Virus record (IMG/VR): IMGVR_UViG_3300045988_057867
Length of the DNA stretch: 47,590 nt
From: a virus
Reading direction: 5' to 3' (one strand)
Each line of letters opens with the position of its first letter. Position 1 is the stretch's first letter. A program made the position numbers and the translations under genes. Positions 8,763 to 47,590 of the stretch are shown here, in pieces. The notes beneath the pieces are model-generated. The model did not search any database and was not told the DNA's origin. It worked only from the letters and a program-made list of their open reading frames with translations.

Positions 8763-9897
8763 TCTGCTGACCTCCTTTCTTGCCAAACAATTTATCAATT
8801 GCAGCATCGTACGGGTTTTCTGTTTCCTGCCCTGTCTGTTTTGCTGCTGCGCCTACGGTTCCGGTGTTACTGTCTGCTACGTCTGCGTCTCTGTTTGCAA
8901 GATATGTTCCACCCTGTTTCTTCTGCTCATTTACAATTTTCAGGGCTACTTCTGCTGCACTTACCGGATGTTCAAACATTGCGTCTTCCACAATATCTTC
9001 AAAACCATTCAGCGCAGTTTCTTTAATATCCTTAATTCTTGCGCGTTCCTCTTCTTTTGCATTGCTTACGATCATTGCTACTAAATCCGGGTATTCTGCC
9101 GTCAGTGCTTCAACCGTTGTAATGCTTTCGTTTGTTGCCATGTTCTTTTCCTCCTTTTTTTGTGTTTTGGCTGCACTTGTATTTGTAAAACATCCCGGAT
9201 TTTTCGGGCTGTTAAACAACGATCTGGGAAGTGTTTTATATCCTGATACGTCCAGTGATACGCTGTTTACTACAACGTGGCTGCTGTTTTCCACGGCGGT
9301 TGAAACATCATCAAACATAATTTCGTCACAAAATCCGTTTGATACTGCATCTTCTCCCGTCCACCATGTTTCAACAGACATAAGCTGTTCTATATCCTGT
9401 GCGTCTCTGCCGCTTTTCATTGCGTATGTGTTTACAATTGACTGTTTGATAACCTTTAATTCTTCTGCCATCTTTTCAAAGTCTTCCGCTGTAAAGGTGT
9501 CCCAAACCGTCATAGCCGGGTCATGTATCATAAATACGCCGTTTTTAGCGATCTTGATTGTGTCGCCTGCCATTGCAATTATGGTAGCTGCGGAAGCCGC
9601 CCACCCGTCAATTTTCACTGTTATCTTTGCTGAACAGTCTTTTAAACGTGTGAAGATCGCATTTGCTGCAAACACGTCACCGCCGCCACTGTTGATTCTT
9701 ACAATAATTTCTGATACGTCCCCAAGGGCTGCCAGTTCTTCATTGAATTTTCCCGGTGTTACCCTATCTTCCCACCAGCTTTGCTGTGAAGATATAGCCC
9801 CGTACAATAACAATTCCGGTGGCTTGTTTCCTGCTGCCGGAATGAAGTTCCAGAACTTATTTTCCTGCTGCTGGTTCGCCTGCTGTACTGTTGGCAA
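8755..9897 (-). CDS. ClpP-family prohead protease with a C-terminal scaffold-like domain
   Basis: LLLYGAISS...EIIVRINSGGGDVFAANAIFTRLKD...KIDGWAASAATIIAMAGD is the ClpP/S14 phage protease signature. The C-terminal half is charged and helical. Confidence 0.8.
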   Translation of the reverse strand: MPTVQQANQQQENKFWNFIPAAGNKPPELLLYGAISSQQSWWEDRVTPGKFNEELAALGDVSEIIVRINSGGGDVFAANAIFTRLKDCSAKITVKIDGWAASAATIIAMAGDTIKIAKNGVFMIHDPAMTVWDTFTAEDFEKMAEELKVIKQSIVNTYAMKSGRDAQDIEQLMSVETWWTGEDAVSNGFCDEIMFDDVSTAVENSSHVVVNSVSLDVSGYKTLPRSLFNSPKNPGCFTNTSAAKTQKKEEKNMATNESITTVEALTAEYPDLVAMIVSNAKEEERARIKDIKETALNGFEDIVEDAMFEHPVSAAEVALKIVNEQKKQGGTYLANRDADVADSNTGTVGAAAKQTGQETENPYDAAIDKLFGKKGGQQNV

Positions 9898-22540: not shown

Positions 22541-23235
22541 GTGTATTTCTTTTTACTGAAATAGTTTCTTTCTGCGCCTGTTGGTCCCCATCTGTACGCC
22601 GTCAGTGCCTTGTGGTAATTGTTCTGGTACTTTTTCAACAATTCTGCCATGCAATCAACTCCCGTCCTTATGTTCTGGTATGGGTTATCCACATTTTGCA
22701 CACCGATTTTGTTCATACGGTCCTTGTGGTATTCCGGTATGATCTGCATATATCCGGTTGCATCGTCTGCTGCCGCGTCCCACTGGTACCCACTTTCTGC
22801 TTCGATCATTGCCAGAATGGTTGTATAGTCAACCTTGTACTGTTTGCAGGTGCAATAGGTGTATATCTGTACTATTTCCGGCAAGCATCCGCCATACATG
22901 CTATATTTTTCTGGTATCTTGTAATATGTAAACCCGTCCAGATCGCCTGCGCCCCAGTCCCGGCTTATTGTGTTATACGGGTATATATCGTTGTCCGGGT
23001 CGTTTGCCCGCACTGTCGTTACTGGCTGCATGTCCACCAGTTCTACCGCTTCTGTTGTGATTTCTGCTGTCTGCTGCGGTTCTGGTCCCGGTTTTGTGTA
23101 TGTAAGCGCTGTACAGTATGTTGCTGCCATGATTCCTGCTGCCGCTACAACAGCAACAGTAATCATTGTTCTTTTAATTCTTTTTACTTGCAGTTCTCTT
23201 TTTCGCTGTCTTGCGCTTTTTCTTGCCTGCTGCAC
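22471..23235 (-). CDS. Membrane-anchored lytic transglycosylase (SLT domain)
   Basis: N-terminal TM helix (MITVAVVAAAGIMAATY). SLT motifs are ILAMIEAESGYQWDA, ATGYMQI and YQNIRTGVDCMAELLKKY. Confidence 0.75.
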   Translation of the reverse strand: MQQARKSARQRKRELQVKRIKRTMITVAVVAAAGIMAATYCTALTYTKPGPEPQQTAEITTEAVELVDMQPVTTVRANDPDNDIYPYNTISRDWGAGDLDGFTYYKIPEKYSMYGGCLPEIVQIYTYCTCKQYKVDYTTILAMIEAESGYQWDAAADDATGYMQIIPEYHKDRMNKIGVQNVDNPYQNIRTGVDCMAELLKKYQNNYHKALTAYRWGPTGAERNYFSKKKYTCEYAETVLEKASRIKRELEQEQ

Positions 23236-24103
23236 CTTTCGTTCCTCCTGTCTTTTTCTTCCACATCTTCACATAAATGTGCCACCCTGTTTCCTCATGC
23301 CATTCTGGTTTCACTTCGCTTATGCTGTATGCCGGGAACTGGCGTTCAAAAAACTCTTTTCCTGCGTCCCCGGATTTTGCCAGCTGTTCCACTTTTGCCT
23401 TGCTGTATTTATGATCTGCTGGCGGCTGTACAATCGGTCTTTTCAGATTCCGGCTGCTGCTCCACCTTTTCTTCCCCTGTGGGTTCTTCACAACATACTT
23501 GCATAGCGCTTCAATGCCGTTTTCATTTGTCTGTATACGGTCCGTGTTTACCCATCCCATTTTCTTTATGGTTCCAGCGTACCTTTCCGTGTCTTCTTTG
23601 TACTTCTTCCAGTTGATACGCTTCTTCGTCCACATCATTTCCACTTCATCACGCGGTAATCCACCGTTCATAATAATGTGGTGGTGTATTCTTATCGGGT
23701 GTTCCTGTGCTTCGTCCTCTTTCTTGTAGCCATATTCAGTCACAAGAATGTATTTCAGCGGTTCGATACCCAGTTTCTTTCTGCGGTATGCTATCCGGCG
23801 TAAGTAGTTATTTACTATCCTTTCTGCTTCTTCCGTTGTTTCTGGTAAATCTGCATCTGTGTATGTTGCTGATACGTGCAGATCACCTTCACCAAAATTC
23901 CCGTTACCCAACTGCACCAGATACCGTTTACTGTTCTTGTCGTTCAGGTCCTTTTGTTTTGGCTCTGTTGCTTTTCTTCTTTTCCCTCTTTTACCCTTTA
24001 CTGCCCTTTCTGCATTATCTGTCCGCGGTATTACATCAACTTCCCTGTATAACCCGCAGTCCGTCTTCTTCTCTCTGTAGAACATTTTCTGTCCTTTCCC
24101 CAT
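23174..24103 (-). CDS. Putative HUH rolling-circle replication initiator (Rep-like)
   Basis: Three ordered motifs are present: YILVTEYG (motif 1-like), IRIHHHIIMNG (HUH) and EALCKYVVKN (YxxK). The true start may be the second ATG (MFYREKK). Confidence 0.5.
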   Translation of the reverse strand: MGKGQKMFYREKKTDCGLYREVDVIPRTDNAERAVKGKRGKRRKATEPKQKDLNDKNSKRYLVQLGNGNFGEGDLHVSATYTDADLPETTEEAERIVNNYLRRIAYRRKKLGIEPLKYILVTEYGYKKEDEAQEHPIRIHHHIIMNGGLPRDEVEMMWTKKRINWKKYKEDTERYAGTIKKMGWVNTDRIQTNENGIEALCKYVVKNPQGKKRWSSSRNLKRPIVQPPADHKYSKAKVEQLAKSGDAGKEFFERQFPAYSISEVKPEWHEETGWHIYVKMWKKKTGGTKGAAGKKKRKTAKKRTASKKN

Positions 24104-24412: not shown

Positions 24413-24442
24413 CCCTTTTATTTCAGGCTTTCTTCTGGTGCG

Positions 24443-25471
24443 TTACCACGCACCTTTCAGTGTTTCAGTCACCAGTTCCCAGTCTTCCAGAATTAAAGCG
24501 GAGCGCAGCGAATCGCTGAAGCTGCAGTGAGCACGCGGGTCATGAAGGCTAAGCGCAGACGCGCCGCCGTAGCTGGGGTTGTTGAAACTCGAACCGCGAA
24601 ACGGAACTGCTTCTTCAAGTGTGCTGTCTACCCAGATTCCCGTCTTTTCTTCCTTGTAGTTCTTTGGTACAATACCCAGCTTGTGTGCGATCTCTGGAAC
24701 TTCTTTTAATGTTCCTGCAAGTTTTAAATCTCTGTAGTGATCTCCTCGCCAATCCCCGGCAATTTCCCCGTCTGTCAGTGTTACGCGTCCCATTTGAACA
24801 TCAAGGTATAATTCTTTTCCGGTTTCCTCTGCGACTGCTGCCGTCCAGTGTTCGCTTTCTTCGCTCGTGTCTACTGCTGCCGCGTCATTTTCCTTTATAT
24901 GTTCCACTCTTCCTCTGTTCAACCTTAACCCGGTTACTGGCTCCCAGTAGTTCCCGCATAGCCCAAATACGCCGTCTTCTGTTCCATCATGGGACCATGT
25001 AAGCGGGTCGCATCCGGTCAATGTGCAGTAACCGTCATACAGCGCGCCCCGTTCTTCCGGTGCATCTGCGCACTTTCCGCAATTTGTATTTCCGTGAATG
25101 GTCTTTCCCATCTTTGCTGCTTCATTCAACAGATAGACAAATTCTGTATTTGTCAGCAGGTGCCATCCGTCGCCCTTCTTTTTGCACATTTCTTCTGCTT
25201 CCGTGAAAGTCTTTCTTTCAATAGGCATGTTGTACGGCATGGAATGTGGAATGCCTTTGATCTCTGTATTATGAAATTGTGAGATTGCAACGCCCTGTAC
25301 GATCTTCCCATTTACTTTGAACATATCCGGTACGTCTTTTTCATCCGGTTTGCCGTCTCTCGGGTCCATAAAAAACAGTGTCATAAAATCAGGAATCCCG
25401 TTTTTGTCCTTGATAACTACTTTTGTTCTCCATACGGTGCATGTTCCGTATTTCACCATCTTTAATGCCAT
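24443..25471 (-). CDS. DGR variable protein 1 (C-type-lectin/FGE-like fold, remote target)
   Basis: 342 aa paralog of 38298..39347 (KKKGDGWHLLTNTEF, GNTNCGK, PLTWSHDGTEDGVFGLCGNYWEPVTGLRL). The C-terminal RGSSFNNPSYGGASALSLHDPRAHCSFSDSLRSA is encoded by VR1. Confidence 0.85.
   Translation of the reverse strand: MALKMVKYGTCTVWRTKVVIKDKNGIPDFMTLFFMDPRDGKPDEKDVPDMFKVNGKIVQGVAISQFHNTEIKGIPHSMPYNMPIERKTFTEAEEMCKKKGDGWHLLTNTEFVYLLNEAAKMGKTIHGNTNCGKCADAPEERGALYDGYCTLTGCDPLTWSHDGTEDGVFGLCGNYWEPVTGLRLNRGRVEHIKENDAAAVDTSEESEHWTAAVAEETGKELYLDVQMGRVTLTDGEIAGDWRGDHYRDLKLAGTLKEVPEIAHKLGIVPKNYKEEKTGIWVDSTLEEAVPFRGSSFNNPSYGGASALSLHDPRAHCSFSDSLRSALILEDWELVTETLKGAW
24496..24606 (-). repeat. DGR variable region VR1
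   Basis: Colinear with TR 37606..37716. There are 15 mismatches at TR adenines (coding strand) and 1 at a non-adenine position. Confidence 0.85.
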
Positions 25472-25941: not shown

Positions 25942-26159
25942 CTTACCTCGCCTTTCTTTCTCGCTATCTCCTGTGCAACGTCTTCTTTCATCAATTCAAT
26001 AATTGCCATCATTGCGCCTATTCTTCTGTCGAACACTTCCGCCAGAATTTCTTCCAGTTCTTCAAGTTTGATTCCTGACAGCAGGCAAAATGTATAAATT
26101 TTGAACTTCGGTATTATGTCCAGTCTGCTTATTGCTTCGTGTACGTCAATCCTTGTCAT
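25938..26159 (-). CDS. Hypothetical protein
   Basis: 73 aa, translationally coupled (4-nt overlaps on both sides). Confidence 0.55.
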   Translation of the reverse strand: MTRIDVHEAISRLDIIPKFKIYTFCLLSGIKLEELEEILAEVFDRRIGAMMAIIELMKEDVAQEIARKKGEVR

Positions 26160-27157
26160 TTTGTTTCCCTCTCTTCTCCTAAAATGATCTTACGAAATAT
26201 GCTTTCAAATATAGGAACCGCAATGCTGTTACCCGCCTGTCTGTATAAAGTTGTGTAATATCTGCCCCGGCGCTGGTGTACTGCTTTTGCCGCTTCAAAC
26301 TCCGTGTCTGTATATCCCATCAGCCGCCAACACTCCCGTTCTGTCAAATACCTGTATCTGCCATTTCCGCAGTCAATCACCTGTGCTGGTGTACGGTCTT
26401 GTCTGGTTGTGATCGTATATGCAAAATCTTTTATAACTGTTGCCCGTTTGATTCCGGTTTTTCCGATCACGCTATATACGGACGGTTGCGTTACGTCATA
26501 TGCTTTCGGTACGCTGTCGCTATTTTCCAGAAAATCAGAAATATTTTTCATTGGTGTTCTTACCAGCTTTTCAAAATCAAACTTTTCCCCGTTTAAGCAG
26601 CTGATTGTAAAGACCCTTTCGCGCGCCTGTGGTAGTCCAAACTCCCTTGCGTCCAGAACGTCATAATTGTTCGTGTACCCCAGACGTTCCATTTCTTTCT
26701 GATACCGTACAAAATTTTCTATCATATACTTTGACGTGACGTTTTTCACGTTTTCCCATATCACGTACTTTGGTTTCCATTCTCCCATCTGTTCAATGAT
26801 ATGTATGGTTTCCCACATCAGGCTTGAACGGGTTTTGCTTCCTTCGTCGGCACCTCTTCCCCTGTTTATTCTCCCATCTGCTGCCGTTGCTTTCCCTTGA
26901 TGTCCTGCAATACTCATATCTTGGCAAGGACTGCCATGTATCAAAATGTCAGGTCTAAGGTTCCACCCGACAACTGTTTGTATTTTGTATGGCAGTTCTT
27001 CCGAAAACATATTGTTGTATGATCTCACTGCCTGTTCGTCGATTTCCACATAGTCAATTGCTTTTGTTGGTATCTTTAAATTTCGCAATGCGCAACGCGG
27101 GCTTCCAATTCCTCCGAATAGTTCCAGTATTTGCACTGGTTTTTCTTCGGTTATCAC
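26156..27157 (-). CDS. DNA (cytosine-5)-methyltransferase
   Basis: Motifs are in order: ELFGGIGS (I), HGSPCQDMSIAG (IV), WENVKNV (VI) and QAGNSIAVPI (X). Confidence 0.9.
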   Translation of the reverse strand: MITEEKPVQILELFGGIGSPRCALRNLKIPTKAIDYVEIDEQAVRSYNNMFSEELPYKIQTVVGWNLRPDILIHGSPCQDMSIAGHQGKATAADGRINRGRGADEGSKTRSSLMWETIHIIEQMGEWKPKYVIWENVKNVTSKYMIENFVRYQKEMERLGYTNNYDVLDAREFGLPQARERVFTISCLNGEKFDFEKLVRTPMKNISDFLENSDSVPKAYDVTQPSVYSVIGKTGIKRATVIKDFAYTITTRQDRTPAQVIDCGNGRYRYLTERECWRLMGYTDTEFEAAKAVHQRRGRYYTTLYRQAGNSIAVPIFESIFRKIILGEERETK

Positions 27158-29907: not shown

Positions 29908-31293
29908 ATGATAAAAAAAGAACTTTCTACGGGTCCGCTTCGTGTTGCACTTTACATACGTGTTTCCGGTGAAGAACAAAAGATAAAAGGGCTTTCGCTG
30001 GAAGCGCAACAAGAACGTTTGGAAGAATACGCGCGGCAGCAAGGCTGGGTGGTTGTCGGTATATATATCGACGCTGCAAAAACTGCCCGTAAAGATATGC
30101 GGAAGCGTTCTGAATTTCAGAAAATGATTAGCTCTGTCAAGCGTGATGAAATAGACTTGCTTCTGTTCTGCCGCCTTGACCGCTGGTTTCGATCTGTCGC
30201 AGACTATTACAAGATCATGGAAATACTGCAAACACATCACTGTGACTGGAAGACTACAGATGAAGAATACGACACAAGTACCGCGAACGGTCGTTTGTAT
30301 ATCAACGTCAAATTATCAATCGCCCAGAATGAAGCTGATATTTGTAGTGAAAGAATCTCTGTTGTATTTGACAGTAAGGTACAACACGGCACGGTTGTTT
30401 CCGGTAACTGTCCTTTTGGTTACGTCGTGAATGAAGAAAAGCGCCTTTCCATTGACCCAGACGCTGCCGCGATCGTCCGGGACGCTTTTAATTATTATGA
30501 ATCTTCCGTAAGCCAGCGTGGTACCATCCGGCATATCCGGGAAACCTACGGTGTGAACTGGTGTGATGCTACTTTTCGCCGTATGCTTGCTGAGCGTCTT
30601 TACACTGGTGTTTATGACAGTAACAAGAGATTTAATGAAAATTTTTGCGATCCTATAATAGATGCAGCGCAATTTGATCGCGTACAAAAACTTTTGAAAA
30701 AAAATGCTCGTTTTTCTCCTGCCGGAAATATTTACATTTTCACATCAATTTTAAAATGTGCCGAATGTCTTCATAATCTTTCCGGCTGTCGCACTCGTTC
30801 TGGCAATCATTATTACTACTATTACCGCTGCAACCAGCACTTACAACGCGGCAGATGCAGTCATAATAAATCTGTTCGTGAATCTTATGTTGAAGAATGG
30901 CTTTTTGAACATCTGGGGGAAGAACTGGAACGTTGTAAACTGGAATGGGACGTACAAGCGGCAGAACGTAAAAAGAAAACTCGCTCAACAGATAAAGCGG
31001 TTTTGAAACGGAAATTGACAAAGTTAAAAGAACTGTACATGGATGATCTGATTACTATTGAAGAATATAAAAAAGACTACCAGATATATACTGCTGCCCT
31101 GCAACAGATACCAGATGAAGTTCCAGAAGAAACGCCGCCGGACTTTTCCGCTGTGGAAAGAATGTTGCAAGCAGATTTTAAAAGCATATATGATTCCCTG
31201 ACCCGTGAAGAAAAACGGACGCTCTGGCGCTCTGTTATATCAGAAATTCGTGTTGACCGTGATAATAACATCACGGGAATTATTTTTGGGTAG
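29908..31293 (+). CDS. Large serine recombinase (integrase)
   Basis: The N-terminal resolvase domain is ALYIRVSGEEQKIKGLSLEAQQERLEEYA. It also has a recombinase domain, a zinc ribbon (CAEC...YRCNQHLQRGRCSH) and a C-terminal coiled coil. Confidence 0.9.
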   Translation: MIKKELSTGPLRVALYIRVSGEEQKIKGLSLEAQQERLEEYARQQGWVVVGIYIDAAKTARKDMRKRSEFQKMISSVKRDEIDLLLFCRLDRWFRSVADYYKIMEILQTHHCDWKTTDEEYDTSTANGRLYINVKLSIAQNEADICSERISVVFDSKVQHGTVVSGNCPFGYVVNEEKRLSIDPDAAAIVRDAFNYYESSVSQRGTIRHIRETYGVNWCDATFRRMLAERLYTGVYDSNKRFNENFCDPIIDAAQFDRVQKLLKKNARFSPAGNIYIFTSILKCAECLHNLSGCRTRSGNHYYYYYRCNQHLQRGRCSHNKSVRESYVEEWLFEHLGEELERCKLEWDVQAAERKKKTRSTDKAVLKRKLTKLKELYMDDLITIEEYKKDYQIYTAALQQIPDEVPEETPPDFSAVERMLQADFKSIYDSLTREEKRTLWRSVISEIRVDRDNNITGIIFG

Positions 31294-35446: not shown

Positions 35447-35830
35447 TTACTGTGAAGACATATTACTGAAATCAGAAAGTGTTCCGGTTATATCCGGGTT
35501 TTCCTTCTTAATCTTTAAAAGGTTTTCTGCTTTACTCTTCCAGCAGTAAAACGCCAGTGCAATTACCGATACGCCGCCTACAAACGTAAGCAGCGTGGAA
35601 ATCTGGTAAAAGTCTTTTGCGATCACTACCCACACGCCAACCAGAAAAGCAATGTGGTACGTCAATATTACAGAAAACACAATAATCTTTGTTGCCTGTA
35701 ATTTGTTTTCTGGATGTTCTTCATTTTTCTTCTTTCTTTTCTTTCTTGCTGCTATAATCGCTCTTGAATTAATCAGCAAGAAAAGCAGCATTGCAAGTAA
35801 AAAACCTGTCAAAATACATATCAGCCACAC
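35447..35830 (-). CDS. Membrane protein (3 predicted TM helices), possible lysis accessory protein
   Basis: Hydrophobic segments are [42 protein letters not shown] and [18 protein letters not shown]. Confidence 0.55.
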
Positions 35831-36273
35831 TTTTTGTCACCTTCCCTTTCTGCCTTTTCATCAGCAAGAAAATCATTTGTTTCTGCACAATGTAAATAAA
35901 TCTGCTCCACGTATTTAAAAGCAGCATCCACGCAGCCATTTTCCAGCCCGTTTTCTTTCACATATATTTCGTAATTGTCGTGGGCTTTAAAGAAGTTGTT
36001 AAACTCTTCTTTTGTATGCCTGCGGTGATTCATACAGCTATTAGCAAAGTCAAGGATTTCTGCCCGCCAGCTTTCAATCTTATGTTCCTGTAAATCCTTT
36101 TCAATTTTGTTCAACTGTTCTTTTATATCGTGGTTCATCAATGACCCCACCTGTTTTATCAGGTAGCGTACAGGTTGTATCTTGATTCCCGGTGTCAGGT
36201 CCACCACTATTCCCACTGCTGCCAGCCACGCAAGAACTGTTCTGCATACTTCCCAGATTTCCGTTGTCTCCAT
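35821..36273 (-). CDS. Membrane-anchored hypothetical protein
   Basis: 150 aa with an N-terminal TM helix (VLAWLAAVGIVVDL). Its first 173 nt overlap the 3' end of the RT ORF in another frame. Confidence 0.5.
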   Translation of the reverse strand: METTEIWEVCRTVLAWLAAVGIVVDLTPGIKIQPVRYLIKQVGSLMNHDIKEQLNKIEKDLQEHKIESWRAEILDFANSCMNHRRHTKEEFNNFFKAHDNYEIYVKENGLENGCVDAAFKYVEQIYLHCAETNDFLADEKAEREGDKKCG

Positions 36274-37357
36274 TTACTTTCAATACCTCCTTTGCATACA
36301 TTTCATTTAAACTTTTACGCAGACCGTAGCTGTTGAAGTGTTTCAGTATTCCCCGGTATGAAGCAACGCTTCTGTCAAGTGTTTCTTTGTCGATCTCCCC
36401 GACTGCATACGCATTAAATACATATTTCAGTCGCTTTTTCATCTTCTTTGCAGTCTTCTTTCGTAGTTTTCTGTGTGTGGACCATATGCGGAACCCTACG
36501 AACTCCACGCCCATTGTTACCGGGCGTATGCAGGTTTTCTTGTTTAACTGCAAATTCAGATATTCTTTCAGGAAATCTTCAATGCAACGCTTCATGGTTT
36601 CCAGTTCCCTTTTATTGTTGTGCAGAATTATTACATCATCCATGTACCGTATATAGTAATGGATTCGCAACTTATGTTTGCAGTATTGATCTAATTCGTT
36701 CAAATACAAATTCGCAAACATTTGTGAAGTCAAGTTGCCTATTGGTAAACCTACGCCGAACAGCATTTCGTCAAAAGCAACGTCGCCTATGTCTGCACCC
36801 ATTGGCAAACCAAACCTTGTGTCCTCACAATCAATGATCTTTGCCAGCAGGTCCAGTAATTGCTTGTCTTTGATCTGCCTTGCAAGAATGTTTTTCAGTA
36901 TTTCATGGTCTATTCTGTAGAAATACTTTGATACATCCAGTTTTAAGTAATAATACTTTTCTGGTTTCCTTTCGGTCTGTCTCATCCATCCTTGTAGGCG
37001 GTCAATTGCTGCATGTGTGCCATATCCCACGCGGCAAGCATAGCTGTCTTTTATGTACTGCTTTTCTATCAGCGGGTTAAGCTGCCTGTAGATCGCATGT
37101 TGTGCAACACGGTCTTTAAATTGAAGCGACATAATGAGCCGCTTCTTTGGTTCGTAAACATAAAACATGTGGTAATGCCCGACTTCATAAAGTCCCCATA
37201 TCAGGTTATTTTGCAGGTCAAACAGATTTTCTTCTAATTTGTCTGCATACTCCATTACATCAGGACGGTACCTCTTTGATTTTATTGCTGCTTTGTAGGC
37301 TTCCAGCAGGTTTTCAAAATCATATATTTTCGGGAAAAGGTTTTTTATCGTTTGCAA
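36101..37357 (-). CDS. DGR reverse transcriptase
   Basis: TTG start with RBS GGAGGG. RT motifs are YLKLDVSKYFYRIDH, GLPIGNLTSQMFANLYL (the DGR-typical I/LGxxxSQ) and YIRYMDDVIIL. A TR lies immediately upstream. Confidence 0.9.
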   Translation of the reverse strand: MQTIKNLFPKIYDFENLLEAYKAAIKSKRYRPDVMEYADKLEENLFDLQNNLIWGLYEVGHYHMFYVYEPKKRLIMSLQFKDRVAQHAIYRQLNPLIEKQYIKDSYACRVGYGTHAAIDRLQGWMRQTERKPEKYYYLKLDVSKYFYRIDHEILKNILARQIKDKQLLDLLAKIIDCEDTRFGLPMGADIGDVAFDEMLFGVGLPIGNLTSQMFANLYLNELDQYCKHKLRIHYYIRYMDDVIILHNNKRELETMKRCIEDFLKEYLNLQLNKKTCIRPVTMGVEFVGFRIWSTHRKLRKKTAKKMKKRLKYVFNAYAVGEIDKETLDRSVASYRGILKHFNSYGLRKSLNEMYAKEVLKVNGDNGNLGSMQNSSCVAGSSGNSGGPDTGNQDTTCTLPDKTGGVIDEPRYKRTVEQN

Positions 37358-37605
37358 TTTTCCCTCCTGTCAATAGTTATGTGCGCCGTACAAATCCGGC
37401 ACGGGCTTTTCCTTGCCAGAACGTAACATATACATCCAGCTTTTTTGCTGGCTTTCACTGCCGTAAACCCCGGCAGTTACTAACTGTTTTTACGGCAATT
37501 TAATCTTTTTCCTACGGCTTGCGCCTTTGGAATGGAAAATAGCCCCTTAAACCCATACGCGCGGGATGCGCCCACGTATGGACGCAACTTCTGGCAGTTG
37601 GGGTG

Positions 37606-37718
37606 AAGCGGAGCGCAGCGAAATGTTGTTGTTGCTGTTAGTACGCGGGTTATTAAGGTTAAGCGCAGATGCGCCGCCGTTGCTGGTGTTGTTGAAACTC
37701 GAACCGCGTAACGGAAGC
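37606..37718 (-). repeat. DGR template repeat (TR)
   Basis: 113 nt matching VR2 (38309..38421) and VR1 (24496..24606). In coding sense it has 28 adenines, including AAC AAC AAC AAC, and translates as PLRGSSFNNTSNGGASALNLNNPRTNSNNNISLRSA. Confidence 0.9.
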
Positions 37719-37780
37719 AAGAACGACCGTCACAATTGTTATGGCTATTTCCCATAGAAAAAGCGGCTTGCGCCGCATTC

Positions 37781-38215
37781 TCACTTTTTCTTTGTTTTCT
37801 GTGGATTCAGTGAATTGTAATAACCGCCTATCATTTTACCGATTTCATTTGCTTTCCTGCTCCATACTTCGTACTGGTGTACGCTGATACATGGTTTCTG
37901 ATCTGGGAAAGAATTTTTGTCCTGTGCTATCTGTAAGCATTGCCGCAGCCAGTCCAGTTCTGTGTCAAGATCGCCCAGCGTCGTTTTCTTGAATGTTTTA
38001 TTTTCCAGTCTTATTACTAAGTGCATAATGTCATACATTGCGTTCTTTATTTGCAGTGCCAGTCCGTATCTTTCCACTTTCGGGAAATTCCGCAGTATCG
38101 GGTTTCCGTACTGTATCATTTCCCTTACCTTATTTTTCATCTTGAAATCGTTTTGCGTGGCGTTGTTTCTCACCTCTTCCAGCAGTTGTTCTGGCTTTTC
38201 TGTTTCTTCTGCCAT
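37781..38215 (-). CDS. avd: DGR accessory variability determinant (Avd, four-helix-bundle family)
   Basis: 144 aa basic helical protein with NFPKVERYGLALQIKNAMYDIMHLVIRL, the Avd / 23S-rRNA-IVS-protein motif. It lies between the target gene and the TR. Confidence 0.8.
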   Translation of the reverse strand: MAEETEKPEQLLEEVRNNATQNDFKMKNKVREMIQYGNPILRNFPKVERYGLALQIKNAMYDIMHLVIRLENKTFKKTTLGDLDTELDWLRQCLQIAQDKNSFPDQKPCISVHQYEVWSRKANEIGKMIGGYYNSLNPQKTKKK

Positions 38216-38248
38216 CTTTTATCCTTTGTATTTTGTGTTATTTTTCAA

Positions 38249-38272
38249 TAGGGATTGCTGCCGCAATCCCTA
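38249..38272 (-). other. 10-bp stem / 4-nt loop hairpin downstream of VR2 (candidate DGR target-recognition hairpin or terminator)
   Basis: TAGGGATTGC-tgcc-GCAATCCCTA. It lies 36 nt past the VR2 boundary and 25 nt past the stop codon. Confidence 0.5.
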
Positions 38273-38297
38273 CAGTGATACAGTGTGCAGTTTCCAG

Positions 38298-39347
38298 TTA
38301 TTCATAATAAGCGGAGCGCAGCGAACCGCTGCCGCTGCTGCCAGTACGCGGGTAAGAAAGGTAAAGCGCAGAAGCGCCGCCGTCGCTGGTGCCGAGGAAA
38401 CTCGAACCGCGTAACGGAAGCCTTTCCCCGTGGTTTCTTGCATAAAATCTTCCCGGTGTTGTCATTCCGGTTTCTGGGAAAATTCCTGCTGCAATTAACA
38501 GCTTTGGAATGCTTACGCCGCTTGCTGCTTTTACATCTTTAAAGAATGAGTTAGTGTCGTTGCTGTCTGTCGTTCTGGTTGTTACAGTAGTGTTAATACG
38601 CAGTGCCCCGTCACTTGCACTGGTACGGTCGATCTTCAATGTTCCTTCTGTTCCCGGTTCAACCAGTGTTCCATCTGGCATAATTGCTTTCCATTCAGTG
38701 CTATTCGCTCCCATGTTGCAGGTCAGCTTCATACAATTACCGTACGGAATAATCTGAATTTCACCATCAACCAGACGTAAACCAGAAACCCACTCCCATG
38801 TGTTGCCGCATAAATCAGCGATACCTGCCGGGGTGCCATCATGGTTCCATGTTACAGGACCCGAACCAGTTGCAGTTCTTCCGCCTTTATGTTCGCCGTC
38901 AATGTATGTGTTCATTCCACGTTCCCATGCTTTTTCGTAGCTTGCGTCCCAGTTGGTGTTCCCGCGTGGGATAAATCCGTTTTTCATACACCATAAATTC
39001 AGTGCTGCAAAAATTCCGTTCTGGTTCAGGTGCCATCCCTGCCCTTTCTTACGGCAAGCAGCCACTGCCTGATCGAAATTGATATAGCATTTAGGGTCTT
39101 TTAATGCCAATGAATATGCACGGTCATTAACAACAGTGTTAATGTATTTTGATACCCAGATGTTTTTTTCTACTCCATCAACAATCCACCACGGCATTGT
39201 TTCCTGTGTTCCGTCTGCAATCACGTCTGAATACTTCATTTTCGGAACCAGTACCATAATTGACGGTTTTCCCAGATCATCAAAAATAACCCGGTTGTTT
39301 GCCCCAAAAGAAGCTACCGCCATTGCAAGATCATCAAAATTACTCAT
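38298..39347 (-). CDS. DGR variable protein 2 (C-type-lectin/FGE-like fold; probable receptor-binding tail-fibre protein)
   Basis: 349 aa with RKKGQGWHLNQNGIF, GNTNWDAS and PVTWNHDGTPAGIADLCGNTWEWVSGLRL. The C-terminal RGSSFLGTSDGGASALYLSYPRTGSSGSGSLRSAYYE is encoded by VR2. It is the last gene of the tail-fibre cluster. Confidence 0.85.
   Translation of the reverse strand: MSNFDDLAMAVASFGANNRVIFDDLGKPSIMVLVPKMKYSDVIADGTQETMPWWIVDGVEKNIWVSKYINTVVNDRAYSLALKDPKCYINFDQAVAACRKKGQGWHLNQNGIFAALNLWCMKNGFIPRGNTNWDASYEKAWERGMNTYIDGEHKGGRTATGSGPVTWNHDGTPAGIADLCGNTWEWVSGLRLVDGEIQIIPYGNCMKLTCNMGANSTEWKAIMPDGTLVEPGTEGTLKIDRTSASDGALRINTTVTTRTTDSNDTNSFFKDVKAASGVSIPKLLIAAGIFPETGMTTPGRFYARNHGERLPLRGSSFLGTSDGGASALYLSYPRTGSSGSGSLRSAYYE
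38309..38421 (-). repeat. DGR variable region VR2
   Basis: 113 nt colinear with the TR. There are 17 mismatches at TR adenines and 1 at a non-adenine position. Confidence 0.9.
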
Positions 39348-44020: not shown

Positions 44021-45265
44021 CTATGCCTGTGACAGTTCCAGTGTGGTTGTGTAACCGCCTGAAATTTTATGTGTTGCTTTATCTATCATGTACTTTCCGT
44101 TAAATGTCTGGAACCCCTGTAATGCAATCGTATTACCCGCAACCAGATTTACGGACCCTGCAAGTGTCATTGTTCCTGTAAACTGCTGTGCGTTTGCCTT
44201 TGTTATACTAGCTTTTGCCAGCGCCTTTGCTTCCGTCAGTGTGTTTACTTTTTTCTTTACGGAAAGTGTTTTTCCGTCCGTTTTGGTTCCCGGAAGTTTG
44301 TATGTATAGCGTTTGTATGATTTTCCATTTTTATATGACACTGTACATTTTGTATAAACTTTATCTTTCAGACTGCTTTTTAAACTGTAGTCAAGCAGGT
44401 TCTGATCTCCGGGCTTTATAGTTTTTATTGCATCTTTTTTCCCGTACTCTTTTGCATCAAAAATAACTATGATCTTTGCTGCCATTTTCAAAGACAGTCC
44501 CTGTGCTTTGCATAGTGCTTCCAAGAACTTAATATTTGTTTTCTTTGCCTGTTCCTTTCTCTTAAAGAATGGGTTTACAGTAGCTTCATACATAAGCCTG
44601 CATTTTTCTTCTTTTGCTATCTTTGCTGCAACATCTTTCAATCTTACGTTTCGCCATGCACGGGAACGTTTTTTCTGGCTTCCAGCATTGTTGTATGATA
44701 TTGCTGCCGCTTTCATTGTTACTTTTGCTGGCGGTCCTGCCAGTGTTACTGTATCTATATCGAATACACCGCAATTCAAAACTGCATCTTTTCCGGTATC
44801 TTCCCAGTTTTCCTGTACAATTACTGCTTTTACCGTTTTCTTTCCGGTGCTTTTTCCGGTTGTCGCTTTGGTTGTGGTGGTTGTTTTCTTTATTTTCAAT
44901 ACCTGCCCTACTCTAATTAGTGTGGGCTTTTTCAACTTATTCAGTTTTGCTATTTCTGTATATTTGCTTTCGCTTCCAAGTTGTGCTTTTGCAATACTTT
45001 TTATGGTATCGCCTTTCTTTACTTTGTAGCTAATTGTCTTTGTTGTCGAAACTTTTTTTGTTACTGTCGGATATATTTCTATCCAGTTTCCTAGCCATTT
45101 CTTTTCCCGATCATCAAACACAATCTGTAAATCATCTGAATTTTTTTCTTTGCTGTCTGTATAAGTAACAGATTGTACATGTTTGTTAATATCGTCTGGG
45201 GCTTTCATATTGCCGCTGACATATAACTGTACTTTTGTTCTTCGTGCTGTGTTTTTGTCTGACAC
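44021..45265 (-). CDS. Late control gene D-like baseplate hub protein with an inserted LysM domain
   Basis: The C-terminal GTMTLAGSVNLVAGNTIALQGFQTFNGKYMIDKATHKISGGYTTTLEL is gpD-like. The internal LysM is YKVKKGDTIKSIAKAQLGSESKYTEIAKLNKL...GQVLKIK. Confidence 0.75.
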   Translation of the reverse strand: MSDKNTARRTKVQLYVSGNMKAPDDINKHVQSVTYTDSKEKNSDDLQIVFDDREKKWLGNWIEIYPTVTKKVSTTKTISYKVKKGDTIKSIAKAQLGSESKYTEIAKLNKLKKPTLIRVGQVLKIKKTTTTTKATTGKSTGKKTVKAVIVQENWEDTGKDAVLNCGVFDIDTVTLAGPPAKVTMKAAAISYNNAGSQKKRSRAWRNVRLKDVAAKIAKEEKCRLMYEATVNPFFKRKEQAKKTNIKFLEALCKAQGLSLKMAAKIIVIFDAKEYGKKDAIKTIKPGDQNLLDYSLKSSLKDKVYTKCTVSYKNGKSYKRYTYKLPGTKTDGKTLSVKKKVNTLTEAKALAKASITKANAQQFTGTMTLAGSVNLVAGNTIALQGFQTFNGKYMIDKATHKISGGYTTTLELSQA

Positions 45266-45538: not shown

Positions 45539-47590
45539 TGTCGTCGTCCTTTTCTTTGATTTCCCGGAAAATCCGTCTTATCAAGGATTCGTTGTTTTCT
45601 TCCAGTTTCTGTTCCAGATCGCCCGGTTTATCTCCGTTTACTACAACTGTAGGGCTATTTGTTACATGAATATTGTTTACAGTTTCTTTTTGTCCGTTTC
45701 CGCTGCTGTTTACCTGTGGTGCTTCTACGGTTTGTGCCTGCTGTCCGCCGTAATATGCGTAAGCAGTTTTCATGTTTCCTACTTCTTCACTGTTCTGTAA
45801 CAGTTTTCTTACGGAAGACATTTTTTCAACAAATGTGTCACCCACAATCTGTTTCATGTTCTTCCATAACTCAGTCAGTGGCGTTACTGCTTCTGCCCCT
45901 GCTTCTCCGCCTACTTTTGCGTGATTTCCTTGCAGATCAAACAGTGTCGGTCCGTTTAAAATACCACCGTTTTTGTAGTAAGAAACAGATATTGACGGTA
46001 CCCGTGGTGGATTAAGTGACAGCGTACCAGACACGCTAAAGTGCGGTACTGCTACATGTGGCAATGATAAATGAATACCAGCAAACATGCCCTGTATAGC
46101 CGCCAGTCCAGACGCTACAGAACTTCTGGCATTTGCCATAGCGCTTGAAAAAGCGGAAGTAATGCCAGCTGCGGTACTTGCCGCGCTGCTTCTGATTGCT
46201 CCGCCGGATGCTATGAAAGCTGTGTTTATGGCTGCAAGTCCCGCCATCACGACTGTCATTGTAGTTGCCATTGCTGCTGTTGTGGTAGCTGTAACCGTCG
46301 TTCCGGTTAATGTTACCGTTGCAACTATTGCCATGCCGGATGCCATGAACTTTGTTTGTAACTGTGTTAATGCCGTTTGTATTCTTGTTGATGCAGCTTG
46401 TATTCTGGTTGCCATCTGATTTACGCCAGTTACTGTTGTTGTAAATGACGTTCTGATATTTTGCAGTGATGTGTTTGCAGATGTTTCCATGCCACTTGCA
46501 CTTGTTTCGACTGCCTGTTGTGCTGCGTTCCATGACTGCTGTGTGTTCTGTGCCGCCTGTTCAAAGTTACTGCTTACGTCTGTATTGACACTTCCCGAAC
46601 TATCAGAACTCTTTCCGGTGATCGCGTCCCAGATTCCCCCGAAAAAGTCTTTCACGCCTTCCCATGCAGTCTTCACCGCGTCTGCTGCTCCGCTTGCCGC
46701 TGTTTTTAATGCTTCCCAGCCTGCATCCAGCAGACTTCCTAAACCGTCTCCAATTCCTGAAATTGTTGTTTTCAGCGCTTCAAATCCGCCGCTTACAGCT
46801 TCCGGCAGTGCATTTACTGCGGTTGTTGCCGCGGTTTTCAGTGCTTCCCAGCCTGTATCCAGTAATGTTCCCAGTCCTCCGGCTACTGTAGTAATTCCAC
46901 TTTTCAGTAGTTCAAATCCGCCGCTTACGGCTCCCGGCAGTGCATTTACTGCGGTTGTTGCTGCTGTTTTCAGTGCTTCCCAGCCTGTGTTCAGTAATGT
47001 TCCCAGTCCTCCGGCTACTGTAGTAATTCCACTTTTCAGTAGTTCAAATCCGCCGCTTACGGCTCCCGGCAGTGCATTTACTGCGGTTGTTGCTGCTGTT
47101 TTCAGTGCTTCCCAGCCTGCATCCAGCAGACTTCCAATTGCTCCGCCTACGGCGGATATTCCGCTTTTCAGCAACTCCCAGCCGCCACTAAGTAATCCGG
47201 GTATTGCGTTTACCGCTGCCACTGCTGCGCTTTTCAGCAGTTCCCAGCCTGCATCCAATAGCGTTCCAAGCACGGAACCCACGGCAGAAATAGCGCTTTT
47301 GAATAACTCCCATGCACCACTGAGTAATCCGGGTATTGCGTTTACCGCTGCCACTGCTGCGCTTTTCAGCAGTTCCCAGCCTGCATCCAGTAACGGTCCT
47401 ATCGCTGAACCTACGGCAGATATTCCGCTTTTCAGCAATTCCCAGCCACTACTTAACAGTCCCGGCAATGCCTGTACTGCGGTTATGGCGGCACTTTTTA
47501 GCCATTCCCAGCCTGCATCCAGTAACGGTCCTATTGCTGAACCTACGGCAGATATTCCGCTTTTCAGCAATTCCCAGCCACTACTTAACA
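45516..47590 (-). CDS. Tail tape measure protein, C-terminal part
   Basis: The track ORF 45516..47570 begins at an internal TTG (Leu) of the GWELLKSG repeat. Its frame (codon first bases at position mod 3 = 2) matches the 1..2962 frame after removing the 33-nt overlap. The joined gene is 5004 nt. Confidence 0.85.
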   Translation of the reverse strand, partial: LSSGWELLKSGISAVGSAIGPLLDAGWEWLKSAAITAVQALPGLLSSGWELLKSGISAVGSAIGPLLDAGWELLKSAAVAAVNAIPGLLSGAWELFKSAISAVGSVLGTLLDAGWELLKSAAVAAVNAIPGLLSGGWELLKSGISAVGGAIGSLLDAGWEALKTAATTAVNALPGAVSGGFELLKSGITTVAGGLGTLLNTGWEALKTAATTAVNALPGAVSGGFELLKSGITTVAGGLGTLLDTGWEALKTAATTAVNALPEAVSGGFEALKTTISGIGDGLGSLLDAGWEALKTAASGAADAVKTAWEGVKDFFGGIWDAITGKSSDSSGSVNTDVSSNFEQAAQNTQQSWNAAQQAVETSASGMETSANTSLQNIRTSFTTTVTGVNQMATRIQAASTRIQTALTQLQTKFMASGMAIVATVTLTGTTVTATTTAAMATTMTVVMAGLAAINTAFIASGGAIRSSAASTAAGITSAFSSAMANARSSVASGLAAIQGMFAGIHLSLPHVAVPHFSVSGTLSLNPPRVPSISVSYYKNGGILNGPTLFDLQGNHAKVGGEAGAEAVTPLTELWKNMKQIVGDTFVEKMSSVRKLLQNSEEVGNMKTAYAYYGGQQAQTVEAPQVNSSGNGQKETVNNIHVTNSPTVVVNGDKPGDLEQKLEENNESLIRRIFREIKEKDDDNDRTVYD
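46640..47590 (-). repeat. In-frame tandem repeats in the tape measure gene (66-nt/22-aa unit, 132-nt super-unit), continuing at 1..~200
   Basis: Protein units alternate between LLKSGISAVGSAIGPLLDAGWE and LLKSAAVAAVNAIPGLLSGGWE. 46861..46988 is essentially identical to 46993..47120. Units recur at 4, 70 and 136 at the window start. Confidence 0.85.
47558..47590. repeat. 33-nt terminal overlap with positions 1..33 (circularisation or assembly junction)
   Basis: cgcttttcagcaattcccagccactacttaaca occurs at both window ends. Joining them keeps the minus-strand tape-measure frame intact. Confidence 0.8.

Follow-up and report, generated by a model that had tools for sequence, protein, structure and literature searches.

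Is the cassette of reverse transcriptase (RT), accessory and repeat sequences found in this viral DNA a complete diversity-generating retroelement (DGR) that still operates, and what do its target proteins do? The window, i.e. the whole stretch of 47,590 nucleotides that was analysed, is the entire genome (~47.6 kb) of a temperate myophage. This phage is related to Clostridium phage Saumur and probably infects Lachnospiraceae. We are confident that the cassette, which adjoins tail and lysis genes, is a complete and recently active DGR, carried by a phage that is temperate, has a contractile tail and probably infects a gut member of that family.

Reverse transcriptase and Avd

The ORFs and the repeat coordinates confirmed the order target-avd-TR-RT given in a preliminary description of this DNA, and its coordinates for the RT, Avd, target, TR and VR2 were all reproduced, with every element on the minus strand:

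36101-37357, minus strand: DGR RT gene, 418 aa, with LPIGNLTSQ at nt 36722-36748 and YMDD at nt 36635-36646
37606-37718, minus strand: TR, 113 nt, with 28 adenines and 10 AAY codons in the VR frame
37781-38215, minus strand: avd (accessory variability determinant), 144 aa, with NCBIfam, Pfam and PHROG matches
38298-39347, minus strand: target gene 2, 349 aa, a TaqVP-like C-type-lectin-fold variable protein with VR2 near its 3' end
38309-38421, minus strand: VR2, the cassette-adjacent variable repeat, near the 3' end of target gene 2

The RT harbours the LPIGNLTSQ motif at residue 204 and YMDD at residue 238, and it matches the Pfam RVT_1 (4.7e-21) and phrog_1423 (6.7e-139) profiles. Its best PDB match is 8ub7, the bRT of Bordetella phage BPP-1 (E 1.1e-54; 36% identity over residues 5-355), whereas group II intron RTs reach only ~1e-19. 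Judged from these matches, the RT groups with DGR RTs, as had been proposed. A different reading would treat the repeats as the ordinary product of paralogy or gene conversion, diversified by selection, and assign the RT to a group II intron, retron or defence system with no connection to them. The best NCBIfam match by E-value is indeed TIGR04416, a group II RT/maturase model (2.6e-35), in a library devoid of a DGR-RT model, but it scores 122 bits against a 300-bit cut-off, and the NCBIfam group II, retron, Drt and AbiA models are all far under their cut-offs. In addition, the Rfam scan detected neither a group II intron nor a retron RNA, and we give this reading practically no credence. The protein first called Avd-like is a bona fide Avd, with 88 bits against NCBIfam NF033474 (DivGenRetAVD), over the curated cut-off of 80; it also matches Pfam bAvd (3.3e-23) and phrog_3206, 'Avd protein of DGR' (8.7e-33).

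Repeats and target genes

A repeat search returned TR and VR2 as an ungapped direct repeat of 113 nt with 84% identity. This computed alignment agrees with an earlier one made by hand: 17 of the 18 mismatches fall at TR adenines (10 A>G, 5 A>T and 2 A>C), and the last one is at T96 (T>G). The enrichment is highly significant (hypergeometric p = 5.4e-12, for 28 adenines within the 113-nt TR) and supports the proposed signature of mutagenic retrohoming. Selection alone would not limit 17 of 18 changes to the adenines of a non-coding copy (p = 5e-12). This A-site enrichment, the NCBIfam scores and the match to bRT refute the combination of ordinary repeats with a group II intron, retron or defence RT.

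The TR read in the VR frame gives ...NNTSN...NLNN...TNSNNNI, the AAC/AAT-codon pattern already noticed in the preliminary description. Its adenines are at codon positions 1-2 in 26 of 28 cases, and no substitution of an adenine would yield a stop codon. With ten AAY codons and no possible stop, up to ~5e15 peptide variants could thus be displayed on the ligand-binding face of each target.

The preliminary description was right about VR2 but omitted a second repeat, which that very name implied, in a second target gene:

24496-24608, minus strand: VR1, a variable repeat remote from the cassette, ~13 kb away from the TR, with 17 further codons downstream
24443-25471, minus strand: target gene 1, 342 aa, a paralogue of target 2 that contains VR1

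VR1 differs from the TR at 15 A sites, at T96 and at 2 bases at the edge of the homology, and T96 is the one non-adenine site at which both VRs of the window genome differ from the TR. Both VRs are supplied by this one TR. The lectin-like nature of target 2 was confirmed by its match to the DGR variable protein TaqVP (PDB 5vf4; E 1.5e-64 over residues 5-337), in which VR2 aligns to the TaqVP VR. Target 1 is 31% identical to target 2 (E 1e-34) and also matches 5vf4 (E 1.9e-23). Both proteins belong to PHROG 2889 (1.5e-114 for target 2 and 3.9e-59 for target 1), annotated as 'unknown function'.

The gene of target 2 directly follows those of baseplate J, a P2 gpI-like protein and small tail-associated ORFs. 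As this is the position expected of a tail fibre gene, target 2 is most likely a receptor-binding protein whose diversification alters host recognition. Receptor tropism switching is plausible from this position and from the homology to other DGR variable proteins, and Mtd, the prototype lectin-fold target, is a receptor-binding tail protein (PMC3240598). It does not obviously cover target 1, whose gene lies in the replication module between a DNA methyltransferase and a replication-initiator gene, a position conserved in relatives including phage Saumur. An active DGR might have a main role other than host-receptor switching, with targets that bind mucus or environmental glycans, or a phage or host factor, and with target 1 in particular being a non-virion protein made with the early/replication genes. 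The PHROG of unknown function to which both targets belong, the lack of a known ligand for TaqVP, the closest solved homologue (PMC6328139), and the suggestion that other gut phage DGR targets bind environmental material (PMC11792537) are in line with such a role. Given the normal tail fibre site of target 2 and the precedent of Mtd, we hold it to be possible but the less probable option.

Retrohoming and its sequence elements

A comparison of VR2 with the TR of the same contig in 12 relatives, each assembled independently, gave differences at 174 adenines and 3 other sites. There are at least seven TR alleles among these contigs, and at non-A sites VR2 matches the TR allele of its own contig. 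Contigs with one shared TR allele nevertheless have different VRs, with a divergence of 16.8% in the VR versus 0.14% in avd-TR-RT. As the VRs follow lineage-specific TR substitutions, transfer went on after the TR alleles had diverged. These differences between assemblies point to ongoing retrohoming, and the variation across samples is as the preliminary description anticipated, with VRs polymorphic at A sites and TR and VR agreeing at non-A sites. The two-VR layout with A-restricted mismatches, apart from one non-A exception, is found in relatives at 99%, 73% and 62% RT identity and in the induced prophage Saumur. More broadly, 132 of 157 related RT loci have an A-biased repeat pair. Mismatches across relatives amount to 1673 at A sites and 60 at non-A sites, a tally filtered at >=75% A and hence biased upward; even so, selection alone would not yield it.

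These data bear on whether the locus could be a fossil, with recognisable parts, lost homing and old VR/TR differences. Two features might suggest decay. The C-terminal ~60 residues of the RT form an unusual tail that extends past the bRT homology and overlaps an ORF at 35821-36273, and a terminator-like hairpin stands between avd and the TR:

37763-37776, minus strand: terminator-like hairpin, GCGGC-GCAA-GCCGC then TTTTT, immediately past the avd stop codon

However, relatives with as little as 62% identity keep the RT tail, no ORF of the RT, Avd or either target is disrupted, and the catalytic YMDD is present. Of ~85 non-A sites, only 1 in VR2, and 1 plus the two edge bases in VR1, are mismatched to the TR. 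The tracking of lineage-specific TR substitutions by the VRs of relatives, and the different VRs next to identical TR alleles, also argue against a fossil, which we consider very unlikely. As for the hairpin, found by consensus scan together with the alignment of relatives, its stem covaries in the latter. The TR RNA has no predicted promoter.

The GC-rich 3'-terminal 17 nt, TTCGCTGCGCTCCGCTT, are the same in TR, VR1 and VR2. The invariance reported for this tract thus holds, but its proposed role as an IMH-like mark does not suffice, since a tract that donor and recipient share cannot on its own distinguish one from the other. The determinants specific to the VRs are a 4x ACTG array and a GRNA hairpin located 3' of it:

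38273-38298, minus strand: 4x ACTG heptad array of VR2, ACTG-N3-ACTG-N3-ACTG-N4-ACTG, between VR2 and the hairpin
38249-38272, minus strand: hairpin after VR2, 10-bp stem TAGGGATTGC/GCAATCCCTA, with a 4-nt loop, GGCA, that fits the GRNA consensus
24458-24483, minus strand: 4x ACTG heptad array of VR1, coding there (..DWELVTETL..)
24437-24454, minus strand: hairpin after VR1, GGTGCGT-GGTA-ACGCACC, with a GRNA-type loop

The stop codon of target 2 (TAA) ends on the first A of the VR2 array, the rest of which is non-coding. In the VR1 hairpin, the target 1 stop codon TAA (24443-24445) runs from the last two nucleotides of the loop into the first of the 3' arm. The array has only these two matches in the window, with 0.00 expected by chance, and unlike both VRs, the TR is followed by neither array nor GRNA hairpin. 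Among relatives, the array occurs in 57 of 104 unique VR flanks versus 0 of 97 TR flanks, and hairpins with GRNA-type loops and covarying stems in 113 of 135 VR flanks versus 23 of 135 TR flanks. The loop consensus and the function of the hairpin are described for BPP-1 (PMC3240598).

The TR itself is followed by a structured RNA that pairs with its surroundings:

37358-37605, minus strand: spacer (Sp) RNA separating TR and RT, a conserved, structured non-coding RNA and divergent Rfam RT-14 member (match at 37461-37607)
37533-37544, minus strand: spacer strand of a long-range duplex, GGCUAUUUUCCA, which pairs with the block upstream of the TR
37743-37754, minus strand: block upstream of the TR, conserved UGGGAAAUAGCC, partner of the spacer strand and counterpart of the avd:Sp 'cPRT Stop' duplex in BPP-1
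37546-37554, minus strand: spacer strand of a candidate template:primer duplex, GGGUUUAAG, with its predicted partner at 37601-37608

A 28-sequence alignment of the spacer supports 34 pairs, 18 of which show compensatory changes; 98.4% are paired, versus 32-47% when slid, and 0 of 500 shuffles did as well. The duplex between spacer and upstream block comprises 12 pairs (99.4% paired), 4 of them with double compensatory changes. The predicted partner of GGGUUUAAG consists of the last 3 TR nt and the subsequent ACCC (RNAalifold helix 9, 94.9% paired). This helix is a candidate template:primer duplex by analogy with the BPP-1 RNA architecture (bioRxiv 10.1101/2023.10.23.563531), its near-invariant pairs making covariation neutral.

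By the same analogy, RT and Avd would bind an RNA spanning the upstream block, TR and spacer, and cDNA synthesis would be cis-primed from the spacer at the TR 3' end, with misincorporation opposite TR adenines. The cDNA would then take the place of VR1 or VR2; the common 17-mer with the VR-specific array and hairpin may mark the recipients and protect the TR from overwriting.

Comparison with known systems

The prototype DGR, mtd-avd-TR-brt of BPP-1, has the same gene order on one strand, a lectin-fold target with a C-terminal VR, an Avd family member, and an RT 36% identical over its full length that shares IGxxxSQ and YMDD. The two systems also share adenine-specific TR-to-VR differences, a GC-rich repeat 3' end, adjoining tail and lysis genes, a GC-rich hairpin with a 4-nt GRNA loop 3' of the VR, and a structured TR-RT spacer RNA with the spacer/TR-upstream duplex next to the TR-3':spacer duplex. 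In contrast with BPP-1, the window has one TR feeding two targets, one of them 13 kb away; its TR and VR 3' tracts are identical, without an IMH/IMH* difference inside the tract; and its target has no sequence-level homology to Mtd, in a myovirus of a Gram-positive host. The hairpin is ~36 nt past the repeat rather than ~4 nt, the gap being filled by the 4x ACTG array that BPP-1 lacks. The spacer has 248 nt and matches RT-14, not RT-10, compared with 140 nt in BPP-1, and the upstream duplex strand lies in the avd-TR gap, past the terminator-like hairpin, rather than inside avd.

The RT-14 model (RF02921) matches full-length on the first ~145 nt of the spacer, including the last 2 TR nt, with the conserved blocks UGCCAGA, UUAAAGGG, UUCC and UAGUA in common. 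The window copy scores 44.4 bits, under the gathering score of 48.1, which the relatives L104, L082 and L056 pass at the same spacer position. The model ends before the structure's 3' part and leaves out the pairing to the TR-upstream block. Only RT-10 was assigned to DGRs by Weinberg et al. 2017 (PMC5737381), the other RT-n motifs being a matter of speculation.

TaqVP, from a Thermus aquaticus prophage DGR likewise ordered target-avd-TR-RT (PMC6328139), matches target 2 over nearly its whole length and target 1 as well. It comes from another phylum and environment, and no other target has been described for its DGR. The closest annotated phage, Clostridium phage Saumur (ON453901), is an induced prophage of Enterocloster clostridioformis YL32 with a 73% identical RT and the same genome architecture. 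It carries the same DGR, with an adjacent VR (8752-8862), a non-adjacent VR (44254-44368) beside the replication-initiator gene, and 4x ACTG arrays and hairpins. It is a separate species-level phage, in which megablast found no match to the DGR region of the window; its record annotates RT and Avd only, with no TR or VR, and its naming paper is silent on a DGR.

Prophage DGRs with an adjacent and a distant target and A-to-N differences have been reported by Wu et al. 2018 (PMC5758913) and for the Faecalibacterium phages Lelie, Lagaffe_CP and CP11 (PMC11792537); the RT of Lagaffe and that of the window share 49% identity. No categorical difference separates these two-target systems from the DGR of the window, which is a clear but ordinary example of a well-known kind of system. 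What it adds to them is a layout conserved across a clade with RT identities of 62-99%, in which the second target is consistently found in the replication module.

The repeat pair, the proteins and the phage genome

A repeat search found a 113-nt direct repeat, ungapped and 84% identical, made up of the template repeat (TR) and the variable repeat VR2 of the diversity-generating retroelement (DGR). Its coordinates agree to the base with those proposed in a preliminary description made from the sequence alone, and an ORF check returned the reading frames given there.

Main features of the DGR and its phage
1-33 and 47558-47590: terminal direct repeat, 33-nt overlap
24443-25471, minus strand: target 1 gene (342 aa), with VR1 near its 3' end
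24496-24608, minus strand: VR1
26156-27157, minus strand: cytosine-type DNA methyltransferase gene
29908-31293, plus strand: large serine recombinase/integrase gene
36101-37357, minus strand: reverse transcriptase (RT) gene
37358-37605, minus strand: spacer, the interval between TR and RT
37606-37718, minus strand: TR
37781-38215, minus strand: avd gene
38298-39347, minus strand: target 2 gene
38309-38421, minus strand: VR2

Computed on the minus (coding) strand, TR and VR2 differ at 18 positions, 17 of them adenines in the TR, which reproduces the count obtained earlier by hand. The changes are 10 A>G, 5 A>T and 2 A>C, plus a single T96>G, and with 28 adenines in the 113-nt TR the enrichment at A sites is pronounced (hypergeometric p = 5.4e-12). 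The homology stops abruptly at both ends. As also recognized from the sequence, the final 17 nt, TTCGCTGCGCTCCGCTT, are devoid of adenine and the same in TR and VR2; they are the same in VR1 too. In the VR frame the TR has 10 AAY codons, and 26 of its 28 adenines fall at codon positions 1 or 2. No adenine substitution in the TR can create a stop codon, and its theoretical repertoire is about 4.7e15 peptides.

The RT (418 aa) matches Pfam RVT_1 and PHROG 1423 (6.7e-139), and has the motifs LPIGNLTSQ (IGxxxSQ in place of QGxxxSP) and YMDD. A placement with group II intron or retron RTs, the alternative raised in the preliminary description, was not borne out. The best solved relative is 8ub7 (E 1.1e-54, vs about 1e-19 for group II intron RTs), which is the bRT of Bordetella phage BPP-1, the prototype DGR, as confirmed by its match to the brt gene of AY029185 (E 4.5e-230). 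The two enzymes are 36% identical over residues 5-355, including GVGLPIGNLTSQ (GVGIPIGSLTSQ in bRT) and RYMDD. The group II intron profile TIGR04416 scored 122 bits for a cut-off of 300, and Rfam searches detected neither a group II intron RNA at the gathering threshold nor a retron RNA (msr/msd). The NCBIfam profiles of retron and defence RTs also remained below their cut-offs (retron_St85, 54 bits vs 235; Drt2-5, 26-60 vs 200-550; AbiA, 18 vs 250). These matches assign the predicted enzyme to the DGR clade. Beyond the region homologous to bRT, the RT has a C-terminal tail of about 60 residues that overlaps the 5' part of an ORF at 35821-36273 by 173 nt (36101-36273). This tail is conserved in many relatives, with the exception of the close relative L004, in which a 360-aa RT is followed by the full 150-aa ORF.

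Avd is assigned to its family because it matches both Pfam bAvd (3.3e-23) and the NCBIfam DGR-Avd equivalog NF033474 (88 bits, cut-off 80); a phmmer search of the PDB with this protein gave nothing significant. Target 2 aligns nearly end to end with PDB 5vf4 (E 1.5e-64), the structure of TaqVP, a variable protein with a C-type-lectin fold from the DGR of a Thermus aquaticus prophage (PMC6328139), and VR2 is aligned to the VR of TaqVP. Target 1 is a paralogue of target 2 (31% identity, E 1e-34) and itself matches TaqVP (E 1.9e-23). Both targets are thus predicted to have a TaqVP-like, variation-tolerant lectin fold.

The 33-nt terminal overlap and a tape-measure reading frame of 1683 codons that spans the junction of the window ends indicate that the assembly is complete and circularly permuted, with a length of about 47.56 kb. 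The tape-measure gene is followed by baseplate genes (gpJ-like, P2 gpI-like) and several small ORFs, then by target 2, avd, TR and RT; two more small ORFs precede the endolysin gene. The serine integrase and methyltransferase genes are consistent with a temperate lifestyle.

A megablast search of the DGR region against GenBank phages revealed no near-identical phage. The closest one is Clostridium phage Saumur (ON453901.1), with an RT 73% identical and the same genome architecture. It contains a complete two-target DGR resembling that of the window, with repeats at 8080-8194, 8752-8862 (adjacent VR) and 44254-44368 (non-adjacent VR). Its GenBank record annotates the RT and Avd and leaves the TR and VRs unannotated, and the paper that named it, a prophage induced from Enterocloster clostridioformis of the OMM12 mouse consortium, makes no mention of a DGR (PMC10197239). 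In reference genomes, the relatives of the RT are almost all from Lachnospiraceae or other Clostridia in gut samples. Avd proteins identical to that of the window are recorded in 228 assembly-collection blocks, many of them on contigs of about 48 kb. Two of the related elements (loci L001 and L002) are flanked by host genes and represent integrated prophage copies. The bacterial flank of another related prophage locus, L104, has a ZMP/ZTP riboswitch (17012-17110, 50 bits) unrelated to the DGR.

A second target and diversification across assemblies

Scanning the whole window with the TR, adenine positions being ignored, yielded one further copy, VR1, ~13 kb from the TR. This copy is outside the coordinates given in the preliminary description, although its label 'VR2' presumably reflects such a first VR. 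VR1 shows 15 A-site mismatches to the TR, a change at T96 as well, and two at bases of the 5' edge of the homology. Since VR1 and VR2 are both copies of a single TR, one TR feeds two VRs. VR2 ends 3 codons ahead of the stop codon of its gene, and VR1 17 codons ahead. The neighbours of target 1 are the methyltransferase gene and a replication-initiator gene (23174-24103). Its position in the replication module is kept both in Saumur and in other relatives. This conserved second target may be of use to DGR specialists, as it prompts one to ask what a diversified lectin-fold protein would do there.

The same arrangement of two VRs is present in Saumur and in relatives at 99%, 73% and 62% RT identity. 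The mismatches of these VR pairs to their own TRs are at adenines, with one exception, a T-site in the non-adjacent VR of a related phage (L014+L162) that is common to Saumur. In the window, position 96 of the TR (37623) is T, replaced by A in VR1 and G in VR2. We considered that an ancestral A at this position, forming an AAT codon, might lie behind both changes. This was ruled out, as T96 is present in 12/12 related TR alleles, and the other 11 VR2s all retain T.

The preliminary description had proposed a population test, which we ran between assemblies, using 12 contigs with either the identical Avd or an RT at 99% identity, among which at least seven TR alleles occur. In this comparison the VR varies at A sites and follows its own TR elsewhere. 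Relative to the TR of its own contig, each VR2 has 11-19 adenine differences, for a total of 174 A-site vs 3 other differences. The same VR2s compared with the TR of the window have up to 8 non-A differences, and these coincide exactly with the substitutions in the TR allele of the same contig. The transfer of information from TR to VR has therefore continued during the divergence of the TR alleles. Different VRs are also found on contigs that share one TR allele. Thus, L002 and L006 differ at 19/113 positions of the VR, at 30/900 over the remainder of the target gene and at 3/2200 in the avd-TR-RT region. In these ungapped same-TR comparisons, indels shifted four of the seven pairs out of register, giving about 645/900 or about 1400-1500/2200 apparent mismatches, and these pairs were dropped; we retained L002/L006 and, with respect to the VR and target gene only, L004/L009. 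Altogether, the differences among these sequences argue that mutagenic retrohoming is ongoing.

A search of IMG/VR with the exact A-to-N degenerate TR pattern gave no match because the relatives differ at non-A sites, and their loci were obtained instead by protein-based locus retrieval. An A-biased repeat pair is present in 132 of 157 related RT loci. The aggregate over related loci is 1673 A-site vs 60 non-A mismatches, a tally inflated by the filter, which demanded that at least 75% of mismatches be at A.

The RNA of the element

Relatives share the 248-nt spacer, in which invariant blocks are interspersed with variable stems. Its RNAalifold structure comprises 34 pairs, 18 of which show compensatory double changes. 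In the alignment, 98.4% of the cells are paired, vs 32-47% when the partners are slid, and none of 500 shuffles reached the observed covariation score. We then enlarged the alignment to include the sequence upstream as far as the avd end; the whole structure obtained in this way is 93.5% paired vs 36-47% when slid.

RNA elements around the TR
37461-37607: match to the full-length Rfam model RT-14 (RF02921), covering the first ~145 nt of the spacer and the last 2 nt of the TR
37743-37754 with 37533-37544: 12-bp duplex formed by the spacer with a conserved block immediately 5' of the TR
37546-37554: GGGUUUAAG, on the spacer strand, 1 nt 5' of the upstream:spacer duplex
37763-37776: terminator-like hairpin GCGGC-GCAA-GCCGC followed by TTTTT, directly past the avd stop codon and upstream of the TR

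The score of the window with RF02921 is 44.4 bits (E 5e-5 to 1.3e-4) for a gathering score of 48.1, and the homologous spacers of three relatives exceed that score (L104, 57.8; L082, 52.6; L056, 51.0 bits). The RNA of the window is therefore best described as a divergent RT-14 homologue rather than a member at the curated threshold. The motifs RT-1 to RT-19 were reported as orphans located close to RT genes; RT-10 alone was assigned to a DGR, the one of BPP-1, and any DGR role of the remaining motifs was speculative (PMC5737381). Our comparison suggests that RT-14 is a DGR spacer RNA. As far as we could find, this assignment has not been described previously; it is a comparative observation.

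The upstream:spacer duplex is 99.4% paired and has four pairs with double compensatory changes. The predicted partner of the adjacent GGGUUUAAG consists of the last 3 nt of the TR and the following ACCC; these pairs are almost invariant and hence beyond the reach of covariation. A first fold of the spacer alone had paired GCUCC of the TR with GGGGC of the spacer. We do not rely on this helix, because part of the G-run serves the covariation-supported upstream:spacer duplex of the extended alignment. The cryo-EM structure of the BPP-1 bRT-Avd-RNA complex has a TR:Sp template:primer duplex, Sp being the spacer, beside an avd:Sp duplex called 'cPRT Stop' (bioRxiv 10.1101/2023.10.23.563531). The predicted TR:spacer duplex and the upstream:spacer duplex of the window have the same arrangement. 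Unlike BPP-1, the window has a terminator-like hairpin and T-run directly after avd, and this hairpin covaries in relatives. Scanning for sigma-70 promoters yielded no candidate from which the TR RNA could start, and hits were no more numerous than in shuffled sequences. The comparative evidence for RT-14 as a DGR spacer RNA with a BPP-1-like architecture may help DGR specialists.

Recipient sites and comparison with known DGRs

In DGRs the 3' ends of the VR and TR are marked by IMH and IMH*, respectively. The element has all the computationally testable defining features of a DGR, with the reservation that its IMH and IMH* are alike within the shared tract: the GC-rich 17-mer is identical in TR, VR1 and VR2. 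As donor and recipients share it, the tract alone cannot mark a recipient. Cases in which IMH equals IMH* are included in the survey of Wu et al., according to which recognition must then reach further downstream. We found that the sequences over about 40 nt downstream of VR1 and VR2 are alike, and that the flank of the TR is not (alignment score 70 vs 41 +/- 5.5 for shuffles, maximum 65).

Elements shared by the two VR flanks
24458-24483 and 38273-38298: four-fold ACTG heptad array (ACTG-N3-ACTG-N3-ACTG-N4-ACTG), the only two matches in the window (0.00 expected by chance)
38249-38272: hairpin after VR2, 10-bp stem and 4-nt loop GGCA, directly after the array
24437-24454: hairpin after VR1, 7-bp stem and 4-nt loop GGTA, directly after the array

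The heptad array fills the ~36 nt between the VR and a hairpin with a GRNA loop. It adjoins the VR in 104/177 loci, and the exact ACTG array occurs in 57 of 104 unique VR flanks vs 0 of 97 TR flanks. Distant Firmicutes relatives retain four xCTG heptads as TCTG, GCTG or CCTG variants. The array is coding after VR1 (DWELVTETL) and non-coding after VR2, save for the last base of the stop codon; its conservation in both contexts indicates a constraint on the nucleic acid. GC-rich hairpins are found in 113/135 VR flanks of relatives vs 23/135 TR flanks, mostly 35-39 nt past the repeat, with GGCA, GATA, GGTA or GACA loops and covarying stems. A hairpin/cruciform with a 5'-GRNA loop is needed for efficient retrohoming in BPP-1 and is conserved in phage DGRs (PMC3240598). 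This hairpin is thus common to BPP-1 and the window; in contrast, BPP-1 has no heptad array. The array is not mentioned in PMC3240598 or in the large survey of Wu et al., and to the extent that we could establish, it is an undescribed candidate cis element, identified here by sequence comparison.

Pairing of the array with an invariant spacer block, CAGUUAGUA, was considered and is not supported: the block varies (CUG/UAG) and the array stays ACTG, and the same spacer bases sit in a covariation-backed intramolecular helix. Our tentative proposal, which we regard as possible without holding it to be probable, is that, within the IMH, it is the array that specifies the recipient in a large lineage of Firmicutes phage DGRs, and that RT-14 is the spacer RNA of that lineage, with a cPRT-Stop-like duplex. 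It is pure speculation that four repeats with a 7-nt period form a binding platform for a multimeric protein, e.g. pentameric Avd. If the proposal is true, orphan or remote DGR targets could be searched for by means of the array and hairpin, independently of a TR. A VR-specific array that marks target sites independently of the TR may also be of use to DGR specialists.

We infer the retrohoming process by analogy with BPP-1. The RT-Avd complex would bind an RNA made of the upstream block, TR and spacer. Starting from the spacer, cDNA synthesis would be cis-primed at the TR 3' end, with misincorporation opposite adenines, and the cDNA would replace VR1 or VR2. The recipients would be defined by the shared GC-rich tract, the heptad array and the hairpin together. 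Given that target 2 is at the tail-fibre position, altered host recognition is the most likely outcome of its diversification.

To our knowledge, no natural system other than DGRs subjects selected genes of prokaryotes and their viruses to massive targeted mutagenesis, and we know of no richer DGR reservoir than gut phages. The cultured and inducible relative Saumur offers a setting, the OMM12 mouse model, in which this type of DGR could be tested.

Non-adjacent second targets within prophages were reported for 45/372 DGRs (PMC5758913), and second VRs are present in the Faecalibacterium phages Lelie, Lagaffe_CP and CP11 (PMC11792537). Since such targets are already documented, the two-target layout does not add a new kind of DGR. 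The element embodies no new principle; it is an unusually clean and widespread example from the under-studied phages of Lachnospiraceae.
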